55,577 nucleotides of DNA from Bacteroidales bacterium (GCA_021740245.1 JAIPAE010000003.1:1-55577); one strand, 5' to 3'; counted from the first letter of the stretch, positions 1-37,500 are shown. The notes: generated by a model from the letters alone, not told the origin. Numbers and translations: made by a program.

Positions 1-795
1 GGTTTCTACTCTGGCTTGCTCTTCTTCTGTAATATCATTGATCATCAAAGTCATTTCATGAGCTGTGTGCCCGACATAAGCCAATGGTTTGTACAAAGCA
101 TTATCTGCATTATTATCTCTCATCATTTCAACTTTTGCAAAATTAGTTCCGCCAAATGCCCCAAATTCTAAGGCTTCAAGCGGTAGTTTCAATAAAGCCC
201 TCAGGCTTTCCTTACCCATTCCCTGCCCAACTTCTTTGGCAATAACCGGATAGTTTGTATCTTTTAAAAAAGCACGGATAGTTTCCAGGGGAGGCATGGT
301 TATAGTATCACCCTCCATCTGAAAGAACTCATGCATCGGATTAATATGCACGATCATACCATCAGCTTTGAGCAAACTCACAAGGTCATGTAATTCACTT
401 ATTCTATCATCCCTGACCATTTGTTCCAATTGCGCAATACCGATGTTTGCGAAAAAAGGCTGGTTTTCACCAATGATTTTTCTCATATCAAAATCCGGCA
501 AAAACTTTTCATTTTCCAAAATAATTCTGCAGGACCCAAGTCCCATGCCTAAACCAAATTCAGCAGCAACTCTGGCCAAGTTAGAATTTATCTTGCGGGC
601 CATTTTTGTACCCCCGGTCATGCTTGATATCCAAAATGGATATTTCATGGTTTTACCAGCCACCTTTTGTTTCAGGGTATAGGATTTCGGGATAGCTGTT
701 AGTACGGGTTCATAAGTAAACCTGTCGTCTTTTTCAACAGCATTAGTTACTGAGTTTAATGCCAGCGTAATATGATCTTTTTTCCGTTCTTCCAT
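1..795 (-). CDS. fni: Type 2 (FMN-dependent) isopentenyl-diphosphate delta-isomerase, 3' end runs off the window
   Basis: Absent from the ORF track because it has no stop in the window. Manual translation from the ATG at 795 gives MEERKKDHITLAL...PFWISSMTGG...GMGLGS...NIGIAQL...VHINPMHE...IAKEVGQG...GAFGGTNFAKVE, matching the IDI-2 motifs RKxxH, MTGG, NIG, HxNxxxE, KEVGxG and GGT. Confidence 0.92.
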   Translation of the reverse strand, partial: MEERKKDHITLALNSVTNAVEKDDRFTYEPVLTAIPKSYTLKQKVAGKTMKYPFWISSMTGGTKMARKINSNLARVAAEFGLGMGLGSCRIILENEKFLPDFDMRKIIGENQPFFANIGIAQLEQMVRDDRISELHDLVSLLKADGMIVHINPMHEFFQMEGDTITMPPLETIRAFLKDTNYPVIAKEVGQGMGKESLRALLKLPLEALEFGAFGGTNFAKVEMMRDNNADNALYKPLAYVGHTAHEMTLMINDITEEEQARVET

Positions 796-801
796 AATAT
801 T

Positions 802-1947
802 TTATAAGCTTCGGGAAATTACCAGTTTTATGATTTCTGATGTACCTTCACCAATTTGCAAGATACGTTGATCACGATAATGTCGCTCAACTTCATTTCC
901 TTTAACAAGTGCATAAGCTCCGAATATCTGCACAGCTTCATCTGCTACTTCCTTAGCAGTCTCGGTACAATAAAGTTTAGCCATGGCAGCTTCTTTGGCA
1001 AAAGGATAATCATTCATTTTAAGCCAGGTTGCATGATAGAGCATATTTCGTGAAGCTTCAATTTTTGTAGCCATTTCGGCAAGTTTAAAGCTAACAGCCT
1101 GAAAGCGTCCGATAGGTTTGCCAAACTGTTTTCTTTCTTTGGAATATTTCAGGGCGGCATCAAAAGCTCCCTGCGCATGCCCAAGACCCATTGCAGCCAC
1201 AGAAAGGCGTCCTGAATCAAGTGTTTCCAACATCATGCGTGAACCAGCACCACGTTTCCCCAACAAGTTGGATTCTGGTACTTTTACATCCTTACATATT
1301 AACTTTCCTGTATCTCCTGCACGCCACATCATCTTATCCCTGATTCGCTCGGTAGTAAATCCTTTGGTTCCGCTTTCTACCAATATCGTGGAATACTCTT
1401 TCCTGCCATTTTCATTTTCTTCTGTAATGCATTGTAATGAAACGCCGGCAGACATTTCTGATGTTGAATTTGAAATAAATAGTTTTTCTCCGTTGATATG
1501 CCAGTATCCATCTTTTAATTCTGCTGTTGTCTCAGTTCCCCGGGAATCAGAACCGGCATTTTTTTCTGTCAGTCCAAAAGCCCACACATAATTACCCGAT
1601 GTTAATTTAGGTAACAATTCCCGCTTTTGTTTTTCTGTACCATAATTATATATCGGACCAATTCCAAGAGAATTGTGAGCAGCTACAGTGCTTCCCTGCG
1701 ATCCGTCTATCCGGCATATTTCTTCCACTGCAATGATAAGGGAAAGGTAATCCCTGCCCTGTCCACCATAATCTTCTGGTATTGCCAGGCCCAGCAAACC
1801 CAGTTGCCCCATCTTACGGCTTAACTCAACCGAAAATTCCGCTTTTTCATCCAGCTCAGTGGCTACAGGCCGGATTTCTCTTTCCGCAAAATCACGTACC
1901 TGTTTCCTTAGCTCGTGATGATGTTTTGTTAAATAAGGACTTTTCAT
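802..1947 (-). CDS. Acyl-CoA dehydrogenase (LiuA/isovaleryl-CoA dehydrogenase-like by context)
   Basis: FGLTEKNAGSD, NGEKLFISN, RKQFGKPIGRFQ and IGEGTSEI motifs. Start trimmed to MKSPYL (1947), 10 bp after the upstream stop. Confidence 0.9.
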   Translation of the reverse strand: MKSPYLTKHHHELRKQVRDFAEREIRPVATELDEKAEFSVELSRKMGQLGLLGLAIPEDYGGQGRDYLSLIIAVEEICRIDGSQGSTVAAHNSLGIGPIYNYGTEKQKRELLPKLTSGNYVWAFGLTEKNAGSDSRGTETTAELKDGYWHINGEKLFISNSTSEMSAGVSLQCITEENENGRKEYSTILVESGTKGFTTERIRDKMMWRAGDTGKLICKDVKVPESNLLGKRGAGSRMMLETLDSGRLSVAAMGLGHAQGAFDAALKYSKERKQFGKPIGRFQAVSFKLAEMATKIEASRNMLYHATWLKMNDYPFAKEAAMAKLYCTETAKEVADEAVQIFGAYALVKGNEVERHYRDQRILQIGEGTSEIIKLVISRSL

Positions 1948-1957
1948 GTTCTTGATT

Positions 1958-3967
1958 TTATTCTTTTTCTTTTTCTTCTTCAATATTTTTCATTCTGATC
2001 AATAGCTGACCATCTTTTACCTGATCCCCTTCGTTGACTTCAACTCGAGCCACTTCAACATCTGATTCAGCCAGTATATTATTCTCAATTTTCATTGACT
2101 CAATAACAACCAATGTATCACCTGTCTTTACAGAATCTCCATTTGATACCTGAATAGCAACAACCCGCCCATGCATTGGTGAAATCACATGTTCATAAGA
2201 ACGGCCAGAATCCTTGTATGCATCTTCAAAATCGCTGGGGCTTAATACATCATGTCTTTGTATGTTGTAATAATATCCTCCGTATTTTAAAACAGCATTC
2301 GAAATATTTTGTTTAACAATTTTAAATTTATGTTCAACATTATTTATTTCTATAACACAATCTTCATGTTCTTTTTTTATACAACAGGCTGTTGATAATG
2401 AATCTTCAATTTGAACGTGAAACTTCCCAGCTCTTTTCCTAATTCCCACATTATATTTTTTATTGTTAAATGAAACAGCGATATTATTTCGAATCCGCCA
2501 GAATCCTAATTTGTTCCATGTTTCTGGTTTAGAATTTTCGTTGCATCTGTCCATTTCTGAAACCAGAAAAGCTGTAATCAAAAAAACAGGCGATATATGT
2601 TCTTTTTTTCTGATGAGTTGATCAATTATTGGCCGTGTATTTTTCTCAAGATATTGTGTAGATATCTTATTATTTATAAAATCCTTACTTAAAAGTATTT
2701 CGGAAAGAAACTCCTGGTTTGTTGTCGTTCCTGTCACCGTAATTTCCTTCAGGTAACCTGCAAGCTTATGAATTGCTTGTATCCTGTTTGTATCATGAGC
2801 AATTACTTTAGCAATCATAGGATCATAATCAGGATAAATAAAATCCTGCTTACGTAATCCATGATCAATTCTGATATCCACATGATCGGGAAAGGAAATT
2901 GAATTCAAAAAACCCGGAGAAGGTTTATAATTCTGAAGTGGATCTTCAGCATATAATCTTGCCTGAACAGCATGACCGCTTACATTCAGGTTTTTCAAGC
3001 TAATTGAAAGCTCATACCCTTCGGCTATTTTAATTTGTTGCTCTACAATATCAATCCCTGTAATTTTCTCAGTCACCGGGTGCTCCACCTGTATTCTTGT
3101 ATTCATTTCAAGGAAGTATATTCTGTCTTGATGATCCACAAGAAATTCTACCGTACCGGCACTGCAATAATTTATAGCTTTAGCTATTTTCACCGCACTA
3201 TCTGTCAAATCCTTTCGAAGCTTTTGATTGACCGATGGTGAAGGAGCTTCTTCAATAACCTTTTGATGTCTTCGTTGCAAAGAACATTCACGCTCAAACA
3301 GATGTATAACATTACCATGATTATCGCCTAAAATTTGAACTTCAATATGCCGTGGATTTTCGAAATAATGTTCTACAAAAACAGTATCATTTCCAAAATA
3401 GTTTTTTGCTTCCCGAGCTGTTGTTTTCAATATATCATTAAGGTTTTCAGCACCTGAAACAACACGCATTCCTTTACCGCCACCACCTGCTGAAGCTTTC
3501 ACAAGCACCGGATAAATCAGTTCATTCTTTCTTGCCAGTATCTCTAGCGGGCTGCCGGTAATCCCTTCAGAAATGTTGACTCCTGCTTTATGCGCTGTGA
3601 TTCTCGATTGTATCTTATCCCCCATAACACGAATGGCTTTTGCATCCGGGCCTATGAAAAGTGCATTATTACGTTCACATAATAACGGAAATTCAGGATT
3701 TTCAGATAAAAAACCATAACCAGGATGGACAGCATCAACGGCTGATTGTCTGATAGCAGCCTCAATCTTTCGAAGATTAAGATAGGTATTCTGTAAAGTA
3801 CCTGTCCCTAATGCATAAGCCTCATCAGCCTGAGTGACATGAAAAGCTTGTTTATCATTAGCTGCATAGATGGCCACTGTTTTTATACCCATTTTTCCGG
3901 CAGTACGCATAATTCGCACAGCTATTTCACCCCTGTTAGCAATCAGTATTTTGCGTATTTTCTTCAT
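1958..3967 (-). CDS. Biotin carboxylase/biotin carrier subunit (3-methylcrotonyl-CoA carboxylase alpha, LiuD-like)
   Basis: LIANRGEIA, HPGYGFLSEN, GGGGKGMR, ERECSLQRRHQK and EMNTRIQVEHP motifs; C-terminal biotinyl domain with ESMKIE. Confidence 0.9.
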   Translation of the reverse strand: MKKIRKILIANRGEIAVRIMRTAGKMGIKTVAIYAANDKQAFHVTQADEAYALGTGTLQNTYLNLRKIEAAIRQSAVDAVHPGYGFLSENPEFPLLCERNNALFIGPDAKAIRVMGDKIQSRITAHKAGVNISEGITGSPLEILARKNELIYPVLVKASAGGGGKGMRVVSGAENLNDILKTTAREAKNYFGNDTVFVEHYFENPRHIEVQILGDNHGNVIHLFERECSLQRRHQKVIEEAPSPSVNQKLRKDLTDSAVKIAKAINYCSAGTVEFLVDHQDRIYFLEMNTRIQVEHPVTEKITGIDIVEQQIKIAEGYELSISLKNLNVSGHAVQARLYAEDPLQNYKPSPGFLNSISFPDHVDIRIDHGLRKQDFIYPDYDPMIAKVIAHDTNRIQAIHKLAGYLKEITVTGTTTNQEFLSEILLSKDFINNKISTQYLEKNTRPIIDQLIRKKEHISPVFLITAFLVSEMDRCNENSKPETWNKLGFWRIRNNIAVSFNNKKYNVGIRKRAGKFHVQIEDSLSTACCIKKEHEDCVIEINNVEHKFKIVKQNISNAVLKYGGYYYNIQRHDVLSPSDFEDAYKDSGRSYEHVISPMHGRVVAIQVSNGDSVKTGDTLVVIESMKIENNILAESDVEVARVEVNEGDQVKDGQLLIRMKNIEEEKEKE

Positions 3968-3970
3968 ACT

Positions 3971-4771
3971 TCAGTTTTGAGTATTTGATATTTTAGACCA
4001 GTCCGGGTTTCGTTTTTCAGCAAAAGCTTTCATACCTTCCTGGCCTTCGTCACTCAACCGTGCCGATGCGATCATATCTGCTGTAATATCTTCCATCTCA
4101 CCCATATGAATACGATCAGCAATTTTGCTTATTAGCCATTTTGTGTTTTTTACTGACCCAGCTGCAGCAGCCTGGATAGAATTTACTGTACTATGCAAAT
4201 AATCATTTATTTCTTTTTCCTTACCGCTGAAATTTATCAATCCTGTTTTTAAAGCCCTGTCAGCATCAAACTGTTTCCCGGTTAGCATCAACTCCCGCGC
4301 ATTAAACTCACCAATTCTGTTAACTACAAAAGGAGATATAGTTGCAGGAATTAATCCCAGTTGAACTTCAGAAAACCGGAACACGGTTTCATCATCAGCA
4401 ATACTGATATCTGAGGCTGCTACTATACCGTTCGCCCCTCCAAAGCTGGCACCGTGAACAATTGTAATAACCGGAACCGGGAAACTGTATATTGCGTAGA
4501 ACAACCGGTATAACTGTTTGCTTTCAAGCTTATTTTCATTAAAAGAATAATTCATCACCGATTGCATCCAGTCTATATCAGCACCGGCACTAAAAACAAT
4601 GCCTCTTCCACGGATAATCAATATCCGCAAATTTTTTTCATGTTTAAATGATCCTAAAGCCATTAATAGTTCATCTATCATTTGTTCATGAAAAGCATTG
4701 CGCTTTTCTGGTCTGGACAACCATATTATGGCTGTATTCTCATTTTTTTCTGTTTCAATATATCTGTACAT
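3971..4771 (-). CDS. Enoyl-CoA hydratase family, methylglutaconyl-CoA hydratase (LiuC-like)
   Basis: RPEKRNAF, FSAGADIDWM, GASFGGANG, FSEVQLGLIPATISPFV and EGQEGMKAFAEKR; lies between the MCC subunits. Start trimmed to MYRYIE. Confidence 0.85.
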   Translation of the reverse strand: MYRYIETEKNENTAIIWLSRPEKRNAFHEQMIDELLMALGSFKHEKNLRILIIRGRGIVFSAGADIDWMQSVMNYSFNENKLESKQLYRLFYAIYSFPVPVITIVHGASFGGANGIVAASDISIADDETVFRFSEVQLGLIPATISPFVVNRIGEFNARELMLTGKQFDADRALKTGLINFSGKEKEINDYLHSTVNSIQAAAAGSVKNTKWLISKIADRIHMGEMEDITADMIASARLSDEGQEGMKAFAEKRNPDWSKISNTQN

Positions 4772-4778
4772 AATAACT

Positions 4779-6386
4779 TTACATTCGGAAGACACCATTT
4801 TTCATATCTTCAATTGGTTTATTCAATGACATCGATATCGCCATTGCTATAATATTTCTGGTTTCTGCAGGATCTATAATCCCATCATCCCAAACTCTTG
4901 ATGTGCTGTAATAGGCAGAGCTTTCATACTCATATTGGTCCAGAATTCCTTTTCGTATGGACTGAATTTCTTTATCATCCGGTTCTTTCCCTTTCGTTTT
5001 TAATTGTTTTAATTTAACAGATGTTAAAACGCCTGCAGCTTGTTCACCACCCATAACAGATATGCGGGAATTGGGCCATATCAATAGAAGATTCGGATCG
5101 TAGGCACGACCGGCCATAGCATAGTTTCCTGCACCAAAAGACCCCCCCACAATTACAGTAAATTTCGGAACATTAGCATTTGCTATAGCATGAATAAGTT
5201 TTGCACCGTGTTTGGCCAGTCCTTCGTGTTCATATTTCTTCCCGACAATAAATCCGGATATATTCTGTAAAAACAAAATTGGAATTTTACGGGACTGACA
5301 GAGCTCAATAAAATGTGCTCCTTTCATAGCTGATTCTGAACCAAAAACACCATAATTTCCTAAAATTCCAACCGGATAACCCATAAGATAAGCAAATCCG
5401 GTAACCAAAGTTGTTCCATAATCACGTTTAAACTCATGAAAACGGCTACCATCAACAATTCTCATAATAATTTCCCGTGGATCTACTGATTTTTTCAAAT
5501 CTATTGGAGCTATGCCATATAATTCTTCAGCAGCATAAACCGGATTTTCAACTCGCTTTTTTTCGAGTTTGTATTTTTCTTTAAGCGGTATGGTTTGAAA
5601 CAGGTTCCTGCAAATTTCCAGGGCATGATCATCATTTTCGGCAATATGATCAGCAACTCCGGATATACTTGTATGCACATGTGCTCCGCCAAGTTCTTCT
5701 GCACTGACTTCTTCGCCTGTTGCTGCTTTGACCAACGGTGGCCCGCCTATAAATATTGTCCCTTCTCCCCTTACAATTATTGTTTCATCGCTCATTGCAG
5801 GGACATATGCTCCTCCTGCTGTACATGATCCCATCACAATTGAAATCTGATGGAGCCCCATTGCTGACATTCGGGCCTGATTATAGAACAAACGGCCAAA
5901 ATCCTCTTTATCGGGAAAAACTCTGGATTGTTCCGGTAAAAAGACTCCTCCGGAATCCACAAGATAAACCACCGGCAAATGATTTTGCATGGCCATTTCC
6001 TGAGCGCGAACATGTTTTCGTATTGTTTCACGAATATAGGTTCCTCCTTTTACAGTAGCATCATTCGCTATAATAATTGCTTCATGTCCCTCGATAACTC
6101 CAATACCGGTTACAATGCCTGCTCCCAAAAACTGGTCTTTATATTGACCGTTGGCTGCAAGGGTAGACAACTCTAAAAAAGGTGTATTAGGATCCAATAA
6201 TAAATTTATTCGATCGCGAACCAATAGTTTACCTCGCTCCTTGTGCTTTTCTACTGATTTCGGAGAACCTCCGGCCAATACTCGATCAATGTCTGAATAA
6301 AACTTATCCAATAGTTTTTCATATTGCTTTACGGATGCCAGAAATTTTTCTGACGTTGTATTTAATTTCGTTTTTAGTTGATACAC
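4779..6386 (-). CDS. 3-methylcrotonyl-CoA carboxylase beta subunit (carboxyltransferase, LiuB-like)
   Basis: ANDATVKGGTY, YLVDSGG, GSCTAGGAYVPAMSDE, GGPPLVKAATGE, GAGNYAMAGRAY and C-terminal GVFRM; GTG start. Confidence 0.92.
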   Translation of the reverse strand: MYQLKTKLNTTSEKFLASVKQYEKLLDKFYSDIDRVLAGGSPKSVEKHKERGKLLVRDRINLLLDPNTPFLELSTLAANGQYKDQFLGAGIVTGIGVIEGHEAIIIANDATVKGGTYIRETIRKHVRAQEMAMQNHLPVVYLVDSGGVFLPEQSRVFPDKEDFGRLFYNQARMSAMGLHQISIVMGSCTAGGAYVPAMSDETIIVRGEGTIFIGGPPLVKAATGEEVSAEELGGAHVHTSISGVADHIAENDDHALEICRNLFQTIPLKEKYKLEKKRVENPVYAAEELYGIAPIDLKKSVDPREIIMRIVDGSRFHEFKRDYGTTLVTGFAYLMGYPVGILGNYGVFGSESAMKGAHFIELCQSRKIPILFLQNISGFIVGKKYEHEGLAKHGAKLIHAIANANVPKFTVIVGGSFGAGNYAMAGRAYDPNLLLIWPNSRISVMGGEQAAGVLTSVKLKQLKTKGKEPDDKEIQSIRKGILDQYEYESSAYYSTSRVWDDGIIDPAETRNIIAMAISMSLNKPIEDMKNGVFRM

Positions 6387-6600
6387 GGCTTATCTGGTTT
6401 TCATATCAAAAAACAATAGGTATTTATTTTTGTTTCACCTTAACGATAATATAGTTCTACAAGATTTTAAAACATGTAAAAATAATGAGAATTACGATTA
6501 TAACAAATATCCTTATCAACTGAATGAAATAAATTCATAACAAATATGTCATAATCCCTCCTGAAAATGCTTTTTACTCAACAATTAACCTTTGTGAAAT

Positions 6601-7941
6601 TCATTTTTTTGATGATATCCTGTAAATCACAAACCCGATTAGGAGGGTAATCAAGCCTGCCACCGAGGCCAAAGGTTTTTGAATGAGTGAATGAACAACC
6701 ATCCAGGACATCCCCAATAAAAAAATCACCGGAGTTATTGGAAATAGAGGGATTTTATAATTTGATAATGACCTATCTGCTCTCTGCTGATGGATAAAAA
6801 TACCGGCAACAGTCAAACCAGATATCAGGCTTAAGGTAAAGCCCACATATACCAGTATTGTTTCAAATGTAAAAGTAAGTATCATAAAAACAGAAATAGC
6901 CATTTGTAGAATAATTGCTGCATAAGGTGCACCTCCTTTAGACGTTACGGATAAAATATTAAATAACTTAAAGTCCTCTCCCATAACTTTATAAACCCTT
7001 GGCCCTGCCATGATCATAGAGCTTAGTGATGATAACAGGAACAATGCTACGGCAAGCGAGAAAAATTTACCGGCATTTTCCCCAAATACTTTTACTGCAA
7101 CAAAATGAGCTGTTTCAACTTTTCCTTCTATTTCAGCAGCCGGAACTGAGCTAAGGAAGAAATAATTCACTGTCAGATAAACAATGATTACTATGACAGT
7201 ACCTGCAACTAGTGCAAATGGCAGATTTTTTGCCGGCTTTTTTATTTCACCGGCAACATAAGTAGCTGCATTCCAACCGGAATAGGCATACATTACAAAA
7301 ATCAAACCTGCAGCATATGCAGAACTAAAAATGCTTTTGATCTCAAATTCCTGCGTACTCAATGTCCAGGCTTTTTCTTCCTGAATTAAAAAGCCTGCTG
7401 ATACAAATATGACAATTAATATAATTTTAAGTGCTGTGATTATATTCTGAACTTTTGCCCCGGCACTGACACTCCATATATGTAAAATCGAAAAAATAAA
7501 TACTGCGGATATTGCAACTTCCATAACAGGTAAATCCGGGATAACACCGGCAAGGTACCGGCTAAAAGCTACTGCAACAGCTGCTATCGGAGCGGAAAAA
7601 CCGACAATAAGAGAAACCCAGCCTGCCAGAAATCCTGCTACCGGATGAAACAGTTCAGACAAATAATGATATTCGCCTCCACTGCGTGGCATATCTGCAC
7701 CTAATTTTCCATATGTCAATGCACCACATAAAGCTATAATTCCTCCCATCAACCAAGAGATCAACACCGTTAAAGGGTGATGCATATCTCTGATCAAAAA
7801 ACCGGTTGTAGTGAACAGACCTGTGCCTATCATATTGGCAATCACCAAAAGTATAGCAGTATGCAACCCCAAAATTCGTCTGGAACTACTTTTGTTCTTT
7901 TTCCGGGTTTCTTTCATAGTTTGTTCCCGGTTTTTAATCAT
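6601..7941 (-). CDS. APC-superfamily (LAT-type) amino acid permease
   Basis: About 12 hydrophobic segments; IANMIGTGLF, MPRSGGEYHY, YAYSGWNAATYVAGEIKKP and GPRV motifs. Alternative start at 7917. Confidence 0.9.
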   Translation of the reverse strand: MIKNREQTMKETRKKNKSSSRRILGLHTAILLVIANMIGTGLFTTTGFLIRDMHHPLTVLISWLMGGIIALCGALTYGKLGADMPRSGGEYHYLSELFHPVAGFLAGWVSLIVGFSAPIAAVAVAFSRYLAGVIPDLPVMEVAISAVFIFSILHIWSVSAGAKVQNIITALKIILIVIFVSAGFLIQEEKAWTLSTQEFEIKSIFSSAYAAGLIFVMYAYSGWNAATYVAGEIKKPAKNLPFALVAGTVIVIIVYLTVNYFFLSSVPAAEIEGKVETAHFVAVKVFGENAGKFFSLAVALFLLSSLSSMIMAGPRVYKVMGEDFKLFNILSVTSKGGAPYAAIILQMAISVFMILTFTFETILVYVGFTLSLISGLTVAGIFIHQQRADRSLSNYKIPLFPITPVIFLLGMSWMVVHSLIQKPLASVAGLITLLIGFVIYRISSKK

Positions 7942-8713
7942 TATTTTCTTCAGGATGTACCATCGGAACGAACCTTACCCCGGTTATGATCTCCTCATTG
8001 ATATTTCCGTTTTCATATTTGGTAACCTGCTTGAGTAATTGCATATTTTTTCCTTCAGGTAAAACCATAATTCCACCGGGTTTCAACTGTTGCAATAATT
8101 TTTCAGGTATCTTTTCCGGAGCAGCAGTAACTATAATGCGATCAAAGGGAGCATGCTCAGGCCAACCCTGATAACCATCTCCGTGAAGAACCCGAACATT
8201 ATCATATTCCAGGGATTTTAGTTTTCGCCTGGCAGATATGGCAAGTTCTTCTACAATTTCTATGGTATAAACCTCTTTAGCTAAACCTGCCAGTATTGCG
8301 GCCTGATAAGCTGACCCGGTCCCTATTTCAAGAACCTTTTCATCTCCGTTTAGCTCAAGTTGGCTGGTCATAAGTGCTACAATATACGGTTGTGATATCG
8401 TTTGCCCAAAACCAATCGGCAAAGGATTGTCATCCCAGGCAGCATATCTGTAATGCGCCGGTATAAAGCGGTGTCTGGGTGTATTTTTCATCACTTTCAA
8501 AAGTTGCTTATCATTTATTCCACGCGATTTGATCTGGTTTTCAACCATTTTACGGGCAGAACTTTTCCAGGTTGTATCCTTTTTTGTAGGCTGGTTAACC
8601 GGTTTTTGGGTTGCTTTATGATTATTATTCCCTTGTCCATGCTGGCATGAAACAGTAAGCATTATAAATATTACAGACAAACAGGTTACCTTATGCATCA
8701 AAAGTGTTTTCAT
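7934..8713 (-). CDS. pcm: Protein-L-isoaspartate O-methyltransferase with N-terminal lipoprotein signal
   Basis: PRHRF, LPIGFGQTISQPYIVA, VLEIGTGSAYQAA, APFDRIIVTAA, QLKPGG and VRFVPM motifs; the N-terminal hydrophobic stretch ends in LTVSC. Confidence 0.92.
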   Translation of the reverse strand: MKTLLMHKVTCLSVIFIMLTVSCQHGQGNNNHKATQKPVNQPTKKDTTWKSSARKMVENQIKSRGINDKQLLKVMKNTPRHRFIPAHYRYAAWDDNPLPIGFGQTISQPYIVALMTSQLELNGDEKVLEIGTGSAYQAAILAGLAKEVYTIEIVEELAISARRKLKSLEYDNVRVLHGDGYQGWPEHAPFDRIIVTAAPEKIPEKLLQQLKPGGIMVLPEGKNMQLLKQVTKYENGNINEEIITGVRFVPMVHPEENND

Positions 8714-8748
8714 AGTAATTCGTTTAGTGATTTTATAGATGTAAGTAA

Positions 8749-8756
8749 CAAATATA
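8749..8756 (-). promoter_or_regulatory. Bacteroidota sigma-70 -7 element (TATATTTG) for pcm-APC
   Basis: Matches the TAnnTTTG consensus 35 bp upstream of the pcm start, downstream of the rplT terminator. Confidence 0.5.
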
Positions 8757-8794
8757 ATTTATACGCGACTTTTGATCAAGCCAAAACAAAACAT

Positions 8795-8824
8795 AAAAAA
8801 AACGTCACCCTAAAAAGAGTGACG
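8795..8824 (-). terminator. Intrinsic terminator of thrS-infC-rpmI-rplT
   Basis: Minus strand CGTCACTC-TTTTTA-GGGTGACG followed by a run of T, just after the rplT stop. Confidence 0.85.
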
Positions 8825-8850
8825 CCAGTAAGTAATTGATATGATTATCT

Positions 8851-9195
8851 TTATTTTACTTTTTCCACAACTGCTTTGAATGCTTCCGGATTATTCATAG
8901 CCATATCGGCAAGCACCTTACGGTCTAGCTCAATATTGTTAGCTTTTAATTTACCCATAAACTCTGAGTAGGACATTCCATAAGTTCTAGCACCTGCGTT
9001 GATACGCTGAATCCATAATTTGCGGAAATTGCGTTTTTTGTTTCTTCGATCCCGATATGCATACTGCAACCCTTTTTCGTATGCATTTTTTGAAACGCTC
9101 CAGACATTTTTTCTCCGGCCATATTGTCCTTTTACCGCATTATAAACTTTTTTCTTTCTTTGTTTGGCCGCAACTGAATTTACTGATCTTGGCAT
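8851..9195 (-). CDS. rplT: 50S ribosomal protein L20
   Basis: [29 protein letters not shown] and [10 protein letters not shown]. Confidence 0.98.
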
Positions 9196-9273
9196 AATTT
9201 TTTACTTTTTTTTTGCATTAGCGCCTGTTTAGAAAAACAGATCTTACAGCTAATGTCAAATTCAACACTTTTT

Positions 9274-9468
9274 TTACCTGAGCAACATACGTTTTACTTT
9301 TTTCACATCAGTCTGGTCAACGAGAGTGAAATAACGAAGATTCCTCTTCTGTTTTTTCGTTTTCTTAGTCAGGATGTGACTTTTGTATGCATGCTTTCTT
9401 TTAATCTTACCAGTTCCGGTTATTCCAAAACGTTTTTTGGCTCCGGATTTCGTCTTCATCTTAGGCAT
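9274..9468 (-). CDS. rpmI: 50S ribosomal protein L35
   Basis: [14 protein letters not shown]...HILTKK; canonical position between infC and rplT. Confidence 0.98.
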
Positions 9469-19037: not shown

Positions 19038-20606
19038 TTATTTGGTTTTGACTTTATATACAGCGTCAATAATAGTACCGTCTACCCATTTCACCACACC
19101 AATAATTTCATCTTCCAGTTGGGGGTTTTCCGGCATACCACAAATATCTTCTGCTTCCACTTTTAACTCTTCTATGGTTTTTAACGGCAATCCTGCATTA
19201 TGAGCTTTTTCGATCAGATCAATACGTTTTGGATTTATTGCAATACCCCGCTCGGTAACGATGACATCAATCAGTTCACCCGGACCGCAAAGCGTTGTAA
19301 CGCGATCACGGATCACCGGGATTCGATCACGGAACAATGGAATCGGCAAGATCGTAGTTCGCGCAAACAGGCAGTTTTGCCATCCACCAATACCATGTAA
19401 CATATATCCATCTGAGTGAGTAACGACGTTGGCATTGAAATTTACATCCACTTCCGTTGCTCCAAGCATTACAACATCCACCATAGAAGCAAAATTACCT
19501 TTTCCGTGATAGTTATAGCTGGTAAATGGGCTTGTATTCACATGATTAGGATTCTCCCGTATGGAACGAACACCTTCCAGATCAAAAGTCTGTCCGTCCA
19601 GAATATAATCTGCCAGTCCATCCTCAAGCATTTTCACCGGGTATTTATTAGAACCTGCACGTATGAAACGGGCTTTGATATTTCTTTCCTTCATCATTTG
19701 AGCAAAAAATTCACCTACAGCCAGCGCAGTACCACCTGCACCTGACTGAAACGAAAACCCGTCACGGATGATGCCGGCTGCATCGCAAAAATTAGCTGTT
19801 AATTCAGCGATTCGGAGCCTGTCAGGGCTTTTTGTTATCCGAGTGGTTCCGGAAACTATTTTTTCCGGTATTCCGATCTTGTCCACTTCTACAGTGTAGT
19901 CCACCCAGTTACCATGGATTTGCCAGGGAATACATGGAAAATCCACCAGATTATCAGTAGCCACGATCACTTTGTCAGCATGTTGTGCATCTGCCAGGGC
20001 AAAACCAAGTAATCCGCATGCAGCATCGCCATGAACGCCATTGGCATTACCAAATGCATCAGCGGCAGGTGCAGCAATAACTGCAATATCAATATGAACT
20101 TCACCATCTTGTACAGCCTGATAACGACCTCCATGAGAGCGCAAAACACCTACTCCTTTCATATTTCCTTCAGAGGCAAATTTTCCCAGGGGCCCATTCA
20201 TACTTCCCTCTATCCTGTTGATCACACCTGATTTCATATGTTCAATCATCGGCTCGTGGCAGGGGAAGGAAGCCGAGGGAAACCATCGTAAATCTTTAAT
20301 GCCCAGCTCAGCAGCAATTGCAAATATCTGATTAGCTATTACATCACCATTACGGAAATGATGATGTGTGGAAATAGTCATACCGTCTTTAATGCCAGAT
20401 TTTAACAAAGCTTCCTTCAGGGAAGACTGACGTTTATCCCCATCATCAGGATAATCAGCACAGCTTGGAATCGGTGGACCATACTTATTTCCCGTTGGGC
20501 GGTGCTTTCCAACACCTTTGAAAGCCACATGTTTTTCTCCGTTTATTTCTTCAGGGACCTTACGTCCTACAGCATTTTCGACTATTTTATCGTATTTTTT
20601 TGACAT
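19038..20606 (-). CDS. citF: Citrate lyase alpha subunit / CoA-transferase
   Basis: GIKDGMTISTHHHFRNGD, LRSHGGR, FSFQSGAGG, LGATEVDVNFNANV and DVIVTERGIAINP. Confidence 0.92.
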   Translation of the reverse strand: MSKKYDKIVENAVGRKVPEEINGEKHVAFKGVGKHRPTGNKYGPPIPSCADYPDDGDKRQSSLKEALLKSGIKDGMTISTHHHFRNGDVIANQIFAIAAELGIKDLRWFPSASFPCHEPMIEHMKSGVINRIEGSMNGPLGKFASEGNMKGVGVLRSHGGRYQAVQDGEVHIDIAVIAAPAADAFGNANGVHGDAACGLLGFALADAQHADKVIVATDNLVDFPCIPWQIHGNWVDYTVEVDKIGIPEKIVSGTTRITKSPDRLRIAELTANFCDAAGIIRDGFSFQSGAGGTALAVGEFFAQMMKERNIKARFIRAGSNKYPVKMLEDGLADYILDGQTFDLEGVRSIRENPNHVNTSPFTSYNYHGKGNFASMVDVVMLGATEVDVNFNANVVTHSDGYMLHGIGGWQNCLFARTTILPIPLFRDRIPVIRDRVTTLCGPGELIDVIVTERGIAINPKRIDLIEKAHNAGLPLKTIEELKVEAEDICGMPENPQLEDEIIGVVKWVDGTIIDAVYKVKTK

Positions 20607-20618
20607 CGTATTCCTGTT

Positions 20619-21830
20619 TTATTCTTTGTTTATCCAGTTTTCATCCAACAACCCGGTTTTTACAGCTACATATATCTGGCGTTGTGCCCGTTTCACAACC
20701 GGTGGGTCAATCATTTTAGAACCCAGTGAAACAACGCCCAGCCCTTTAGCTTTCGCATCTTCAAAAGCCTTATAGATTTTTTTCGCTTTATCCAGCTCTT
20801 TTTCAGAGGGTGCAAAAGTCTTCTGAACCACAGGAACCTGCCGTGGATGAATACAGCCCATGCCTTCAAACCCTAATTGTTTTGATCGAAGCACATTCTC
20901 TCTTAAGGCTTCCATATCTTCAATATCAGAAAAAACAGAATCTATCGGCTGAATTTTTGCAGCCCGGCAAGCATTAACCATTTGGCTTCGTGCATAAAAT
21001 GATTCTACGCCTTCATCGGTACGTAATGTACCCAGGTCTGCTGTGTAGTCTTCCAGCCCTATTGCCATAGCAACAACATTGTCAGTTGAAGATGCTATCT
21101 CATACGCTTTTATTACTCCTAAAGCACTCTCGATAATAGGCATCAACCAAATGTCATTATCTATATGGTGTTCATTTTTCAACTTATCTATAACCTTATT
21201 AACCGAATGAATTTGTTCAGCAGACTCACATTTGGGTACCAGAACCATATTAACACCGTGAGGAACTATGTATTCAAGGTCTTCCAATCCCTGTGGAATC
21301 TGATTTACTCTAACCATTCTTTCAGCCCCATAAAACTTTAGGTTTCTCAAAGCATTACGCACCAGAAAACGAGCTTCATATTTTTTATCAGGAGCAACAG
21401 CATCCTCCAGGTCCAGAATTAGTCCATCCGGTGAATGTACACCGGCATTTAGCATAAGCTTTGGAGTATTCCCGGGCAGATAAAGCCTTGTAAAACGATA
21501 ACGATCTTTTTTTCCGGGTTCACGGTTATCATCGCGTTGCGGCAACAAATAACTGATCTCCTTTCCTGTGGCCATACGCAAAGCAGCCTCAAGACGTGCA
21601 ACTATGATAAAATCCAGTGCACCTGTATCAACAACCCGGATTGTTCCATGAGTAAACTCAAACTGCGCTGCAACATCCTTCACCAGTTTGCGGATGTTAT
21701 TACCGTATAATTTGTCCACTTTACTCTCCAAGGATATTTCCAATGGGTTCTCACTCCTTAGGATTTCAACATAACAGTCTGATCTTACCTTGTCTCCATT
21801 ATTTCCGGCCTTGTAAATGTTTTTATTCAT
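20619..21830 (-). CDS. Fused citrate lyase ACP (CitD-like, about aa 1-90) and citryl-CoA lyase beta subunit (CitE)
   Basis: N-terminal SKVDKLYG...DTGALDFIIVARLEAA resembles CitD. C-terminal LYLPGN, LDLEDAV, RVN, IIESALG, GLEDYTAD, GMGCIHPRQ and KMIDPPV resemble CitE. Confidence 0.88.
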   Translation of the reverse strand: MNKNIYKAGNNGDKVRSDCYVEILRSENPLEISLESKVDKLYGNNIRKLVKDVAAQFEFTHGTIRVVDTGALDFIIVARLEAALRMATGKEISYLLPQRDDNREPGKKDRYRFTRLYLPGNTPKLMLNAGVHSPDGLILDLEDAVAPDKKYEARFLVRNALRNLKFYGAERMVRVNQIPQGLEDLEYIVPHGVNMVLVPKCESAEQIHSVNKVIDKLKNEHHIDNDIWLMPIIESALGVIKAYEIASSTDNVVAMAIGLEDYTADLGTLRTDEGVESFYARSQMVNACRAAKIQPIDSVFSDIEDMEALRENVLRSKQLGFEGMGCIHPRQVPVVQKTFAPSEKELDKAKKIYKAFEDAKAKGLGVVSLGSKMIDPPVVKRAQRQIYVAVKTGLLDENWINKE

Positions 21831-22142: not shown

Positions 22143-22805
22143 ATGAGATCAAAACATATCAGCATTCTCGTTATTGGCCTGATATCCGCTATAGCATTCC
22201 GGCAATGCAATACACCGGATACTACACCGCCGGAATTAACACTTTCAGGACAAGATACACTTTTTTTAGTCTTGAATCAGGCATTTAATGATCCCGGGGC
22301 AACAGCTTATGATGAAGAAGAGGGTGATATCAGCAATAGTATCCTGGTAACAACCAGGTTAAATCCTGATAAAACAGGCATTTATAAAGTCTATTACACC
22401 GTAACCGATAAAGGTGGAAATAAGGCCCAAGAAGTCCGTTATGTTGTTGTTTATAATGAGGCTGAAAAGTATGCTGCTGTATATAACGCTCAGGTCAATG
22501 GTTTGAATAGCGGAACAAGCTTGAACTATACCGATTCCCTGACATTTTCAGAAACTGAAAATCATTTTCTGAATACCAGCAATTTTTTGAAGCAAAATAT
22601 TGAAATACTGGTTTATGCTTATTCTGACAGCGCCAGGATTGATCATCAACAGATAATTTATAACCAGGACACAGTATATATCGCTTCTGCAATAGCAGGA
22701 ACTGCAGATACTACGAAAATTGAATTAACATTTGATATGTTGGATGCAGACAGTAATCTGATAGATAGTTATAATTTTCAGTATCAAAATATCAGTCCAC
22801 TTTAA
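22143..22805 (+). CDS. Probable lipoprotein with DUF5011/HYR-like Ig domain
   Basis: Signal ending FRQC; DTTPPELTLSG...DPGATAYDEEEGD...GIYKVYYTVTDKGGN...RYVVV. Confidence 0.8.
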   Translation: MRSKHISILVIGLISAIAFRQCNTPDTTPPELTLSGQDTLFLVLNQAFNDPGATAYDEEEGDISNSILVTTRLNPDKTGIYKVYYTVTDKGGNKAQEVRYVVVYNEAEKYAAVYNAQVNGLNSGTSLNYTDSLTFSETENHFLNTSNFLKQNIEILVYAYSDSARIDHQQIIYNQDTVYIASAIAGTADTTKIELTFDMLDADSNLIDSYNFQYQNISPL

Positions 22806-23352
22806 TATGACCCCAGTTTTCTCCAGAACGGATACGGTTTAGCTGTGTATGTGTAATGCCAAATTCCTGCGCAATTTTATAAAGCTTCATATCTCCCTGC
22901 TTCAACATCTTTTTGATTTGTATCACCTGACTTTCGGTCAGTTTTGCATTATACATCCGCTTGTTGGAGTAATTGGGGTTTAATTTTTGATGGGCAAACA
23001 TTGTTGGTTTTGTAACCCATCTCAGGTTTTTTACGTGGTTATTGGTTTTATCATAATCCAAATGAATGACGTACTCTTGTTTATCATTATCTTTTGGTAA
23101 AAATTTGCCTGCCACCAGTTTATGAATATAGCGGGTTGTTCGCCGCCCGTTGATCAGCTTAATACTGATGCAGTTATATCCTTTCAGACGTCCACCTTTG
23201 ATAATTTTACCTTCTTTTGGGTTACGTTTAAAGCTTTTTATCCGTCCGTAATTGGATAACATATAATGCTCATCCGGATGCAATTCTGGTATATCCAGTC
23301 TTTTCCACTCTTCATCAGGGTATTTCTGTCGTATTTTTTTCTTTCTACCCAT
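22792..23352 (-). CDS. NUMOD4 + HNH_3-like + C-terminal HTH protein
   Basis: EEWK...YMLSNYGRIKS (NUMOD4); IHKLVA...VIHLDYDKTNNHVKNLRWVT (HNH); AKLTESQV...IAQEFGITHTQLNRIRSGENWGH (HTH). Confidence 0.85.
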   Translation of the reverse strand: MGRKKKIRQKYPDEEWKRLDIPELHPDEHYMLSNYGRIKSFKRNPKEGKIIKGGRLKGYNCISIKLINGRRTTRYIHKLVAGKFLPKDNDKQEYVIHLDYDKTNNHVKNLRWVTKPTMFAHQKLNPNYSNKRMYNAKLTESQVIQIKKMLKQGDMKLYKIAQEFGITHTQLNRIRSGENWGHIKVD

Positions 23353-34579: not shown

Positions 34580-37500
34580 ATGATACGAAATGTTCTATTA
34601 AGCATTATAACCATTTTACTACTTTCCCCTGCTTTTGTAAATGCACAGGTGATCAGGGAAATATCTAAAGACCCACAGGTTTTTCCAGAAGAACTGATTC
34701 GAATGGCAGAAAGCATCAATAAACGAGAAGTCAAAAAAGAAGCCGAAGAATTTGCAATGCAGTTCAATCGGATGTGGGCTTCAGATACGCTGAATTCAGA
34801 ACAGAAGAAGGCCGTAGTCGAAACAATCAACAGAATGCTGCAAAAAAGAATTTCTGTTGATCCGTCGGTTTTTAAGTATCTACATACGGTTTATGAACTT
34901 TGTCGCACCGATCATTTTGATAAAGACTTTAAAGGTATGACTTCCGGCCTTCATTACTTTACCAAACGGCTACAGCGGACTCATGTAGAAGAAACTATAG
35001 CTCGCCTGGAACATTTCGTAAAAGATCATACACTTACAACACTTACCTCTTCCACCTGGAAATCAACCTCTGGCAATTACAAAATACGCTTTGATAACTC
35101 CGATCGCACTTTCAAAATATTAATACCCAAAACAGACCTCATCGCCTATGCATACAAAGACTCCAGTGTGATCTACAATACAAGCGGATATTATGACCTT
35201 AGACGAAAACGCTGGTATGGCAAGGGAGGAATTGTGACCTGGGAAAATGCCGGATACAACCCGGATATAGTCTATGCAAAATTGGATGAATATGATATCA
35301 ACATGCAGTTTACTAAATACCGCGTGAATCGTGTCAACTTTTTTCATAAAGAATACTTTTCGGAGCCGTTGATTGGTCGTTTGAGTAACCAAACTGAGGT
35401 CGGTTCCACCAGCCGCAATAAAAAACGTGTTAATTACCCCCGGTTTATAGCCTCAGAAGGTCAAAAAACCATTAATAATATCTTTCCTGGTGTGGACTAC
35501 AACGGCGGGTTTTCAATGCTCGGGAGCAGATTTGTAGCCTCATCATCCAAAAAAAATCTGGCCTCAATCCTTATCAGCAAAGATGAAAAACCTTTTATAC
35601 GCCTGATGTCCAACAACTTTGCCATGGATTCAGCCCGTATCAAAAGTGAATTATCAGCGCTGACCATTTACCTGGATGAGGATTCTGTTTACCATCCCGC
35701 AGTCCGTTTTACCTATGACAATAACAATCAGTTATTATCCATATACCGCGATCAGGAAGGCCTATCCAGAAGTCCCTTTTTTGATACTTATCATATGGTT
35801 GATATTGATGTTGAGGCTATCTTTTGGAATATTGACGAAGAGAAAATCCTGCTCCGGAACATCCCGTCCTCATCCGACAGAAACACAGCATTTTTTCGTT
35901 CAATGAACTTCTTTGATGAACAGGAATTCAACCATATAAAAGGAATGGATCGTACCAACCCCATATATCATATTCAATCTTTTTATGAAAATACAGGGAT
36001 GAAAGAATTTCATCTTAACAACATGGTTAATTTCATAGGCTATGCACCGCATATGGTAAAATCTATGCTACTGAAGCTGGCCAATATGGGGTTTCTGAAT
36101 TATGATCTGAATAACGATATGGTAACCATACGCGATCGCCTCTTTCATTACCTTGAAGCAAGACAGGGAAAACGTGATTATGATGTGATCAATTTCAATT
36201 CACGAACACAAAAGAAAAGCAACGGGGAGCTCAGCCTGCTCGACTATAATATGAAACTTTATGGTATCCACACCATACAACTCAGCGATTCACAGAATGT
36301 AGTGATTAATCCCAGGGAGAACTCACTCACATTGAAGAAAAACCGGGATTTTGAATTTGACGGAAGAATCAAAGCCGGGCGCTTCGTAATCCATGGTAAC
36401 GGCTTTGAATTTTCCTACGAAAAATTTGGCATCGAAATGCCTCTTATTGATTCAATGCAATTCTGGGTAAAACCCTTTGAAGAGGACAAAGACAAATATG
36501 CCAATCGCAGATATGTAGAAAGTACGATACAAGATATGCAGGGCGAACTGGTCATTGATAAAGCCAATAATAAATCCGGCAGAAAATCATACCCGAAATA
36601 TCCGATTCTCAAAAACGAGAAAAATGCTTATGTCTATTACGACAAAAACTGCATCTATCCAAACATATATAAACCTGATGAGTTCTATTACCGTTTAGAC
36701 CCGTTTACTATTGACAGCCTTGATAATTTCACTACTGAGGGCTTACAATTTACGGGTTATTTGGCCTCATCGGGGATATTCCCTGTTATTAATCAACCGC
36801 TGGCGGTTCAAAAAGATTATTCCTTAGGGTTCATACATAACACTCCATCAACAGGCTATAATATTTACGGCGGAAAGGGACACTATAATGATCATATCCG
36901 TTTAAGTAACCAGGGGCTGGAAGGCAGCGGAGAGTTAAAATACCTGACGGCAAAAGCAAAATCTGTTGAATTCGATTTTTTCCCTGACAGCACAAATGCT
37001 TTAGCCAATGAATATGTCGTAAAAGAACAAAGCGGACAGGTGCAATATCCGGCTGTTACAGCCACTAACGTGAGGCTGCATTGGGAACCCTATAATGATA
37101 TCATGACCGTTAAAAGCCAGGTAAAACCGGTTAGCATGTTTAATCAACAAGCAAACATTGACGGAAAACTAAAATATACGCCTGATAAAATGACCGGAAA
37201 AGGAAAAATGCATATTGCCGATGCTGATATTTCTTCAGACCGTTTTGTTTATGCAAAACAAGATATCTATGCGGATACCTGTGACTTTAAACTAATTGCT
37301 AAATCTGATGAATTTGGATTAGGTACCGGCGATAAAGTGGAACATGACCTGATCACTAATAATTACAAAGCTGAGATATCTTTTAAAACCCGTAAAGGGA
37401 AATTTACATCAAACAGCGGCTCCTCACGGGTTAAATTTCCTGTCAATCAATATATTGGCTTTATCGACCAATTCAACTGGTTTATGGATAAAGAAGAAAT

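Follow-up and report, generated by a model that had tools for sequence, protein, structure and literature searches.

Where does the HMG-CoA (3-hydroxy-3-methylglutaryl-CoA) formed from leucine go, when no gene for its cleavage is found in the cluster and a gene of isoprenoid synthesis stands next in line? This question was raised by a 55,577-nucleotide stretch of DNA, here called the window, from a metagenome-assembled genome (MAG) of an uncultured Bacteroidales bacterium (GCA_021740245.1, JAIPAE010000003.1:1-55577). Positions 1..6386 of the window encode, consecutively and co-oriented on the minus strand, the beta subunit of 3-methylcrotonyl-CoA carboxylase (MCC; mccB), a crotonase-type hydratase (ech), the MCC alpha subunit (mccA), an acyl-CoA dehydrogenase (ACAD) and a type-2 isopentenyl diphosphate (IPP) isomerase (fni). 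In the Liu cluster of Pseudomonas aeruginosa, liuRABCDE, the last step is performed by LiuE, an HMG-CoA lyase. For the mevalonate pathway of bacteria, acetyl-CoA is the accepted starting point, with thiolase and HMG-CoA synthase as the first enzymes. The original prediction, made from the window sequence alone, was that the operon may supply HMG-CoA from leucine for isoprenoid synthesis and so replace thiolase and HMG-CoA synthase. Comparative genomics supported this proposal. The five genes probably (we would put the probability at about 0.7) open a nine-gene operon leading from isovaleryl-CoA, derived from leucine or isovalerate, to IPP and dimethylallyl diphosphate (DMAPP), with the leucine module in place of thiolase and HMG-CoA synthase.

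The layout of the five genes was read from the open reading frame (ORF) listing and the junction sequences. With ATG starts fitting the gene lengths of relatives, the gaps between mccB, ech, mccA, ACAD and fni are 7, 3, 10 and 6 bp, exactly as first described, and the earlier statement that no HMG-CoA lyase lies within the run was also correct, no HMGL-like gene being present among the five. The claim that the operon ends in IPP isomerase turned out to be an artefact of the assembly. Contig C37 of the MAG, which consists of 107 contigs and is 66.6% complete, begins with position 1, and contigs of a public run carrying the same stretch likewise start at position 1. fni is therefore truncated by the assembly, and the end of the operon cannot be placed at fni. 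In five congeners and several other Bacteroidales families the string continues past fni, which there opens the mevalonate block. Since the assembly stops inside fni, the case for this window rests on relatives.

Forty relatives, seven congeners and 33 from other families of the order, were used for comparison, and the window proteins were mapped onto the flanks of fni. Homologues of fni were found in six of the seven congeners and in seven of the 33 other families. The order mccB-ech-mccA-acad-fni was kept in congeners G001, G004, G005, G006 and G007, and outside the genus the full string was present in G039, in G017 and at one of the two fni copies of G036. G025 gave only a partial mccA match, G019 had acad-fni alone on a short contig, and in G029 and G038 the string was not kept, fni having different upstream neighbours. 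Directly after fni, G001 encodes a class II HMG-CoA reductase (HMGR; TIGR00532, 263 bits, cut-off 259.95), then a GYDIA-family GHMP kinase (283.5 bits, cut-off 225) that may act as phosphomevalonate kinase, a diphosphomevalonate decarboxylase (MDD) and a mevalonate kinase (MVK)-like gene, after which a gene on the opposite strand follows. The same order of fni, HMGR, GYDIA kinase, MDD and MVK-like gene was observed in other congeners and families. HMGR was detected in six of the seven congeners: directly behind fni in G001, G004, G005 and G007, the four whose contigs reach that position, on a contig shared with a fni fragment in G003, and on another contig in G006. The mevalonate genes that had been expected beyond position 1 are thus present in G001 and in other congeners and families, and cannot be read here, where the contig ends. 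A separate observation concerns G036, a complete genome with two fni copies. One lies in a full liu-mevalonate string, and the other (L025) has only a crotonase paralogue upstream, 37% identical to the window hydratase, and no HMGR after it.

The spread of the string was assessed in a one-genome-per-species scan with an alignment of twelve fni sequences, by which 585 relatives were confirmed among 599 pattern matches. The best 80 of these 585 were kept with 10-kb flanks, and the locus counts below refer to this set, which leans towards Bacteroidales because the best loci are the most similar ones. ACAD was found directly before fni in 38 of the 71 loci with at least 1.3 kb upstream. All four liu genes preceded fni in 27 of the 58 loci with at least 6.6 kb upstream, mccB-ech-acad without an intervening mccA in three (L055, L059 and L084), and ACAD only in two. 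HMGR was next to fni on the downstream side in 67 of 73 loci with at least 1.7 kb downstream. Sixty-five loci could be evaluated on both sides: 35 had ACAD and HMGR, none had ACAD only, and four had neither. Going by titles, the carriers comprise, among others, Bacteroidales and Prolixibacteraceae MAGs, one MAG of Marinilabiliaceae, MAGs with the labels Saccharicrinis and Sunxiuqinia, and two cultured organisms, a Geofilum sp. isolate (L061) and Anaerophaga thermohalophila (L102). Loci titled Chitinophagales, Saprospiraceae and Lewinellaceae had the fni-HMGR block without liu genes. The mccB-ech-mccA-acad-fni arrangement is not due to chance, because it recurs in five congeners, in other families and, as ACAD before fni, in 38 of the 71 evaluable named loci. 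Synteny of liu genes and fni across Bacteroidota, which the original prediction had left to be checked, is widespread in Bacteroidales and not confined to this strain.

HMG-CoA synthase was searched for with several models. None of the 41 genomes exceeded the cut-off of TIGR01835, the bacterial HMG-CoA synthase; in the 18 HMGR-bearing genomes this model reached at most 38 bits, G015 giving no match. In five genomes of 97-100% completeness, the archaeal-type synthase model TIGR00748 gave nothing over its cut-off (at most 36 bits) and the C-terminal domain model HMG_CoA_synt_C (PF08540) had no match. The weak TIGR01835 and TIGR00748 matches were rejected as synthases, since they covered the FabH-like part only (the first ~160 positions of TIGR01835) and lay in ORFs of ~335 aa. 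As a positive control TIGR01835 was run on 80 other Bacteroidota genomes. Thirteen of these were HMGR-positive, and five of the thirteen had a detectable synthase, seen as split matches of 159-175 plus 92-109 bits; no other genome of the control had one. The synthases of the phylum are therefore detectable where they are present. MCC-beta orthologues of at least 57% identity were found in 17 of 18 HMGR-positive relatives.

Matches to HMG-CoA lyase of at least 157 bits were restricted to G010, G023, G031, G032 and G033. No such match was found in any genome with the fused cluster, and congeners scored at most 34.9 bits with NF004283. The only two HMGL-like matches in the MAG were considered as a hidden liuE and rejected, being pieces of oxaloacetate decarboxylase alpha/pyruvate carboxylase B at contig ends. 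The CitE-type gene at window 20619-21830 was likewise rejected as the best reading of a hidden lyase, because it is fused to an acyl carrier protein (ACP) domain and adjoins CitF. These citrate lyase genes occupy window 19038-21830 on the minus strand, CitF (473 bits) lying beside the gene for the ACP (CitD-like)-CitE fusion. Searches for mvaS and liuE had been called for with the original prediction, and both came out in its favour.

The position occupied by the mevalonate block in this genus and many others is taken by different genes elsewhere. The liu block of G010 (L122) ends in a lyase-like gene directly after ACAD, and in G031 (L124) two lyase-like genes lie beside the liu block and are read divergently from mccB. 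In G028 (L123) an archaeal-type HMG-CoA synthase (516 bits) and a thiolase close the block. Exchange of genes at one position in this way would be expected if each ending consumes the product of the block, HMG-CoA. The G028 type resembles that of the window's genus in having a liu block without LiuE and with another HMG-CoA-handling enzyme at its end, and differs in that HMG-CoA is presumably split to acetyl-CoA units, whereas in the window's type it would be reduced to mevalonate. The ACAD of the window is 63% identical to the ACADs of the lyase-bearing clusters of G010 and G031, and the C-terminal motif IGEGTSE is common to all; judged by this similarity, ACAD is orthologous across the three clusters. 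The ACAD piece of G028, at the edge of the locus, is 57% identical over residues 17-237, and its motif could not be read because the fetched piece stops before it.

Families were assigned by Pfam and NCBIfam profile searches and by comparison with solved structures by bit score. The best solved match of mccB is P. aeruginosa MCC beta (3u9r_B, 687.9 bits), followed by human MCC beta (8j4z_J, 650 bits), compared to 449 bits for geranyl-CoA carboxylase beta (5ikl_B) and ~245 bits for propionyl-CoA carboxylase (PCC) beta. On these scores mccB is clearly an MCC orthologue. mccA has the domains Biotin_carb_N, CPSase_L_D2, Biotin_carb_C and Biotin_lipoyl, its matches to MCC and PCC alpha chains (430-469 bits) extend over the whole protein, and it carries the biotin-attachment Met-Lys at residues 625-626 in an SMKI motif. 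ech gave 159 bits with ECH_1. Its best NCBIfam model was PRK05674, gamma-carboxygeranoyl-CoA hydratase, with 224.4 bits against a cut-off of 426; its solved relatives are generic crotonases only (up to 188 bits), isohexenylglutaconyl-CoA hydratase reaches 123.7 bits, and no solved methylglutaconyl-CoA hydratase was found within E 1e-30.

The ACAD has the three ACAD domains (N, M and C). Its IGEGTSE motif has Gly where the butyryl-CoA dehydrogenase (Bcd)/medium-chain acyl-CoA dehydrogenase (MCAD) type has Tyr before the catalytic Glu (IGEGT versus IYEGT), and the other ACAD of the MAG has IYEGT. The motif was found in 38 of 42 fni-adjacent ACADs of the named loci. Gly at this position is, we assume, the branched-chain hallmark of isovaleryl-CoA dehydrogenase (IVD), where it presumably opens the pocket of the mammalian enzyme.

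The truncated fni of the window matched TIGR02151 over model positions 1-254 of 338 (E 8.7e-57, 192.6 bits). Among solved structures, the full-length congener protein has no relatives other than IDI-2 enzymes (2zru, 117.8 bits; 1vcf, 110.8 bits), and the conserved positions R-K-x-x-H (basic N-terminal), GS-x-R, H-x-N, E, K-E and GGT were kept.

In the route proposed here, ACAD would oxidise isovaleryl-CoA to 3-methylcrotonyl-CoA, which MccAB, with ATP and biotin, would carboxylate to 3-methylglutaconyl-CoA. The crotonase would hydrate the latter to HMG-CoA. Spared from cleavage by a lyase, HMG-CoA would be reduced to mevalonate by the class II HMG-CoA reductase, and mevalonate would undergo two phosphorylations, by the MVK-like and GYDIA kinases, decarboxylation by MDD and isomerisation by IDI-2. 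Gene order, gene families and the conserved string were observed directly in the genomes compared, as was the negative outcome of the searches for synthase and lyase. From these we infer the substrate specificities, the co-transcription, the direction and size of the flux and, for this MAG, the downstream four genes.

Several observations weigh against this reading. HMGR, the lack of which had been named at the outset as an argument against the proposal, did not turn up in a profile search of this 66.6%-complete MAG, although it is present in the congeners described above; nor did MDD, and tblastn with congener proteins gave no HMGR, GYDIA kinase, MDD, MVK or C-terminus of fni in the MAG. The mevalonate half of this genome is read from relatives, because the MAG is incomplete and its contig ends inside fni. 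Even in G001, MDD (164.7 bits) is just below its cut-off of 171.35 and the MVK-like gene scores 71.2 bits versus 163.05. The TIGR02151 cut-off of 281.3 is exceeded neither by the partial fni of the window nor by a full-length congener protein (202.9 bits), and the Gln of the active-site motif NPxQE, retained in 77 of the 80 related fni loci, is His in this genus (His155, codon 331-333, in the window, and L042-L044). ech could be placed at the level of the crotonase family only, and its candidate function follows from its position. ACAD is closer to solved chains of the Bcd/short-chain acyl-CoA dehydrogenase (SCAD) type (321-349 bits) than to chains named isovaleryl-CoA dehydrogenase (211-231 bits) and retains the catalytic Glu of the MCAD/Bcd type. 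A search of this 66.6%-complete MAG gave no alpha subunit of electron-transferring flavoprotein (Etf), which was found in four of four near-complete relatives. The fusion is not universal, as 26 of the 65 evaluable loci have HMGR without ACAD at fni, and G010 has an HMGR unlinked to its lyase-ending liu block.

A further point on the same side is the methylerythritol phosphate (MEP) pathway, whose genes had also been singled out for a search in the original prediction. dxr was found in this MAG and in 39 of the 41 genomes, ispH was over its cut-off in 34 of 41, and ispG was present in five of five examined. With these genes present the mevalonate route is not needed a priori and is not the only possible source of isoprenoids; in most carriers it would run beside the MEP pathway. 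In G029 and G038, which are 98-99% complete and have dxr and ispG, ispH was not found by two models. Both genomes carry a synthase-less mevalonate block (fni loci L029 in G029 and L028 in G038) and an MCC-beta orthologue, on separate contigs.

Three other readings were considered. The liu and mevalonate genes could be neighbours without a shared flux, ordinary leucine catabolism being completed by an unrecognised lyase and the mevalonate pathway fed by an unrecognised synthase, with adjacency reflecting co-regulation or history. This is regarded as unlikely. The MEP pathway means that isoprenoids need not derive from the cluster, and both the 26 of 65 evaluable loci (best 80 of 585) with a mevalonate block but no liu genes before it and the two blocks on different contigs in G029 and G038 would agree with independent modules. 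However, all 35 loci with ACAD before fni that were evaluable on both sides in the same set also have HMGR behind it, and the two synthase models and the C-terminal domain model came up empty in near-complete carriers, whereas the control detected synthases elsewhere. A lyase or synthase gene stands at the end of the liu block in G010 and G028, exactly at the position of the mevalonate block, or beside the liu block in G031. As for a lyase, a CitE-family enzyme of mycobacteria cleaves HMG-CoA and the window does encode a lyase fold of the CitE type, but the fusion of the latter to ACP next to CitF is the make-up of citrate lyase proper. It is also conceivable, but very improbable, that the cluster acts on geranyl-CoA or citronellyl-CoA-type substrates as in the Atu catabolism of acyclic terpenes, and joins isoprenoid breakdown, rather than leucine, to isoprenoid synthesis. 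Atu and Liu clusters consist of the same enzyme families, and the best NCBIfam model of the hydratase (224 bits) bears an Atu-type name. Against this stand the carboxyltransferase, with 650-688 bits to MCC beta versus 449 bits to geranyl-CoA carboxylase beta, and the solved isohexenylglutaconyl-CoA hydratase, which scores 123.7 bits versus 188 for the best generic matches. Moreover, an Atu-type sequence does not yield HMG-CoA, which would leave the adjacent reductase with no substrate.

The reverse direction had been offered as the alternative in the original prediction, as a link to the isovaleryl-CoA primer in the manner of alternative isovaleryl-CoA biosynthesis (Aib). HMG-CoA would be dehydrated and decarboxylated, and ACAD would reduce the product to isovaleryl-CoA, from which iso-branched fatty acids are primed. 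In favour of this reading, iso-fatty acids are the dominant ones in Bacteroidota, and the closest enzymes to the ACAD are butyryl-CoA dehydrogenases of anaerobes, which are reductive with Etf (5ol2_C, 329 bits; 4l1f, 321 bits). Nevertheless this reading is hardly credible. It is unsupported because the HMG-CoA synthase needed for de novo HMG-CoA was not found (AibA/B and AibC were not searched for), and the alpha subunit has an ATP-grasp biotin carboxylase in full, which marks the enzyme as an ATP-dependent carboxylase rather than a decarboxylase. In the mevalonate block, by established biochemistry, neither the kinase steps nor the decarboxylation can be reversed, and the same ACAD orthologue occurs in lyase-ending, evidently catabolic clusters.

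The flow of leucine or isovalerate carbon into mevalonate thus remains the preferred reading. A stronger version of it would be that these Bacteroidales make no HMG-CoA from acetyl-CoA, that the leucine/isovalerate skeleton is the sole feed of mevalonate, and that in the IspH-less lineages of G029 and G038 all isoprenoids are leucine-derived. We regard this version as doubtful. If it is true, the undecaprenyl cell-wall carrier and menaquinone would be built from leucine carbon, and a branched-chain precursor would be essential for growth in the IspH-less lineages.

The features at the start of the window are collected in Table 1. An amino-acid permease upstream of mccB, which also adjoins mccB in congeners G001, G004 and G006, scored 117.6 bits with the BcaP branched-chain transporter model, far below the model cut-off, and may possibly provide the uptake step. 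Elsewhere in the MAG there is a gene for a fused E1 alpha/beta 2-oxoacid dehydrogenase. As hints of isovaleryl-CoA supply, the data on this dehydrogenase, on Etf alpha and on the permease are suggestive only. A terminator pattern scan of positions 1-9300 gave no terminator-like site between permease and mccB. The strongest minus-strand site in this range is the hairpin 3' of rplT, which is the nearest upstream candidate for a boundary of the transcription unit. No clear promoter was seen by eye in the 214-bp gap 5' of mccB, and a sigma-70 scan (37 sites versus 29.0 +/- 6.4 expected) was uninformative and does not cover Bacteroidota promoters.

Table 1. Positions of the liu-fni genes and of neighbouring features in the window.
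Feature	Position	Strand	Remarks
fni, type-2 IPP isomerase, N-terminal 265 residues, 3' open	1..795	minus	TIGR02151 match
ACAD, candidate isovaleryl-CoA dehydrogenase	802..1947	minus	381 aa from ATG 1947; longest ORF 802..1983, 393 aa
mccA, biotin carboxylase + biotin carboxyl carrier protein (alpha) subunit	1958..3967	minus	669 aa; four Pfam domains
ech, candidate 3-methylglutaconyl-CoA hydratase (LiuC-like), crotonase family	3971..4771	minus	ATG 4771; longest ORF 3971..4798, 275 aa
mccB, 3-methylcrotonyl-CoA carboxylase beta (carboxyltransferase)	4779..6386	minus	535 aa, GTG start; Carboxyl_trans 487.6 bits
Amino-acid permease, APC family	6601..7941	minus	AA_permease_2 156 bits; 214 bp upstream of mccB
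Terminator-like hairpin 3' of rplT	8801..8826	minus	11-pair stem then T run; pattern match only

Two further ORFs of the window were recorded. One of 1522 aa (window 34580-39148, plus strand), between prmA and plsY, had no Pfam match at E 1e-6. The other, of 186 aa (window 22792-23352, minus strand), contains a NUMOD4 motif, a homing-endonuclease-associated DNA-binding module, and is adjoined by a 300-aa ORF.

The string shares with Liu clusters the four enzyme families, ACAD, MCC beta, hydratase and MCC alpha, that lead from isovaleryl-CoA to HMG-CoA. It differs in that no LiuE was found in the cluster or in carrier genomes, mevalonate genes following instead, and its ACAD, unlike that of the P. 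aeruginosa type, is of a Bcd/SCAD-like lineage. In the trypanosomatids Leishmania and Trypanosoma brucei, leucine is converted via HMG-CoA into sterols and deletion of isovaleryl-CoA dehydrogenase (IVDH) abolishes the flux, according to PMC5993337. There, leucine-derived HMG-CoA enters the mevalonate pathway directly and isovaleryl-CoA dehydrogenase is required, as proposed for the string of the window. The trypanosomatid system is, however, eukaryotic and mitochondrial, with dispersed genes, whereas the window type is a single bacterial gene string; trypanosomatids also retain the bridge of HMG-CoA synthase and thiolase from acetyl-CoA, whereas no synthase was found in the Bacteroidales carriers. 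The mevalonate half resembles that of Flavobacterium johnsoniae, a Bacteroidota pathway with divergent kinases (Hayakawa et al. 2017, cited in PMC6107057). It has class II HMGR, divergent MVK- and phosphomevalonate kinase-type GHMP kinases, MDD and IDI-2, as do the Bacteroidales carriers. Chitinophagales and Saprospiraceae loci, which lack liu genes, also show the fni-hmgr-kinase-mdd-mvk block. Other HMGR-positive Bacteroidota can have a detectable synthase (five of 13 sampled), whereas none was detected in the Bacteroidales carriers, which keep MEP genes. Aib with LiuC in Myxococcus xanthus (PMC5389471) shares with the route proposed here the intermediates HMG-CoA, 3-methylglutaconyl-CoA, 3-methylcrotonyl-CoA and isovaleryl-CoA and the hydratase step. 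It runs from HMG-CoA synthase to isovaleryl-CoA via a CoA-transferase-like decarboxylase and a reductase, unlike the window type, which shows no synthase and has an ATP-dependent carboxylase.

PMC9636800 states that the mevalonate pathway, given this start from acetyl-CoA through thiolase and HMG-CoA synthase, is "not dependent on BCAA degradation", BCAA being branched-chain amino acids. In the open literature, subscription journals and supplements being outside the search, no published bacterial liu-mevalonate operon and no synthase-less bacterial mevalonate pathway was found. The chemistry from leucine via HMG-CoA to isoprenoids is already known; what is apparently new here is an operon that fuses both modules in bacteria. 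If the proposed reading is true, the operon would be a compact isovalerate-to-IPP module for pathway engineering, and would affect the interpretation of isotope signatures in bacterial isoprenoid lipids. The leucine module in the place of the synthase would constitute a second entry to bacterial isoprenoid synthesis, and this would explain the mevalonate pathway beside the MEP pathway in peptide-degrading Bacteroidales of sediments and lakes.

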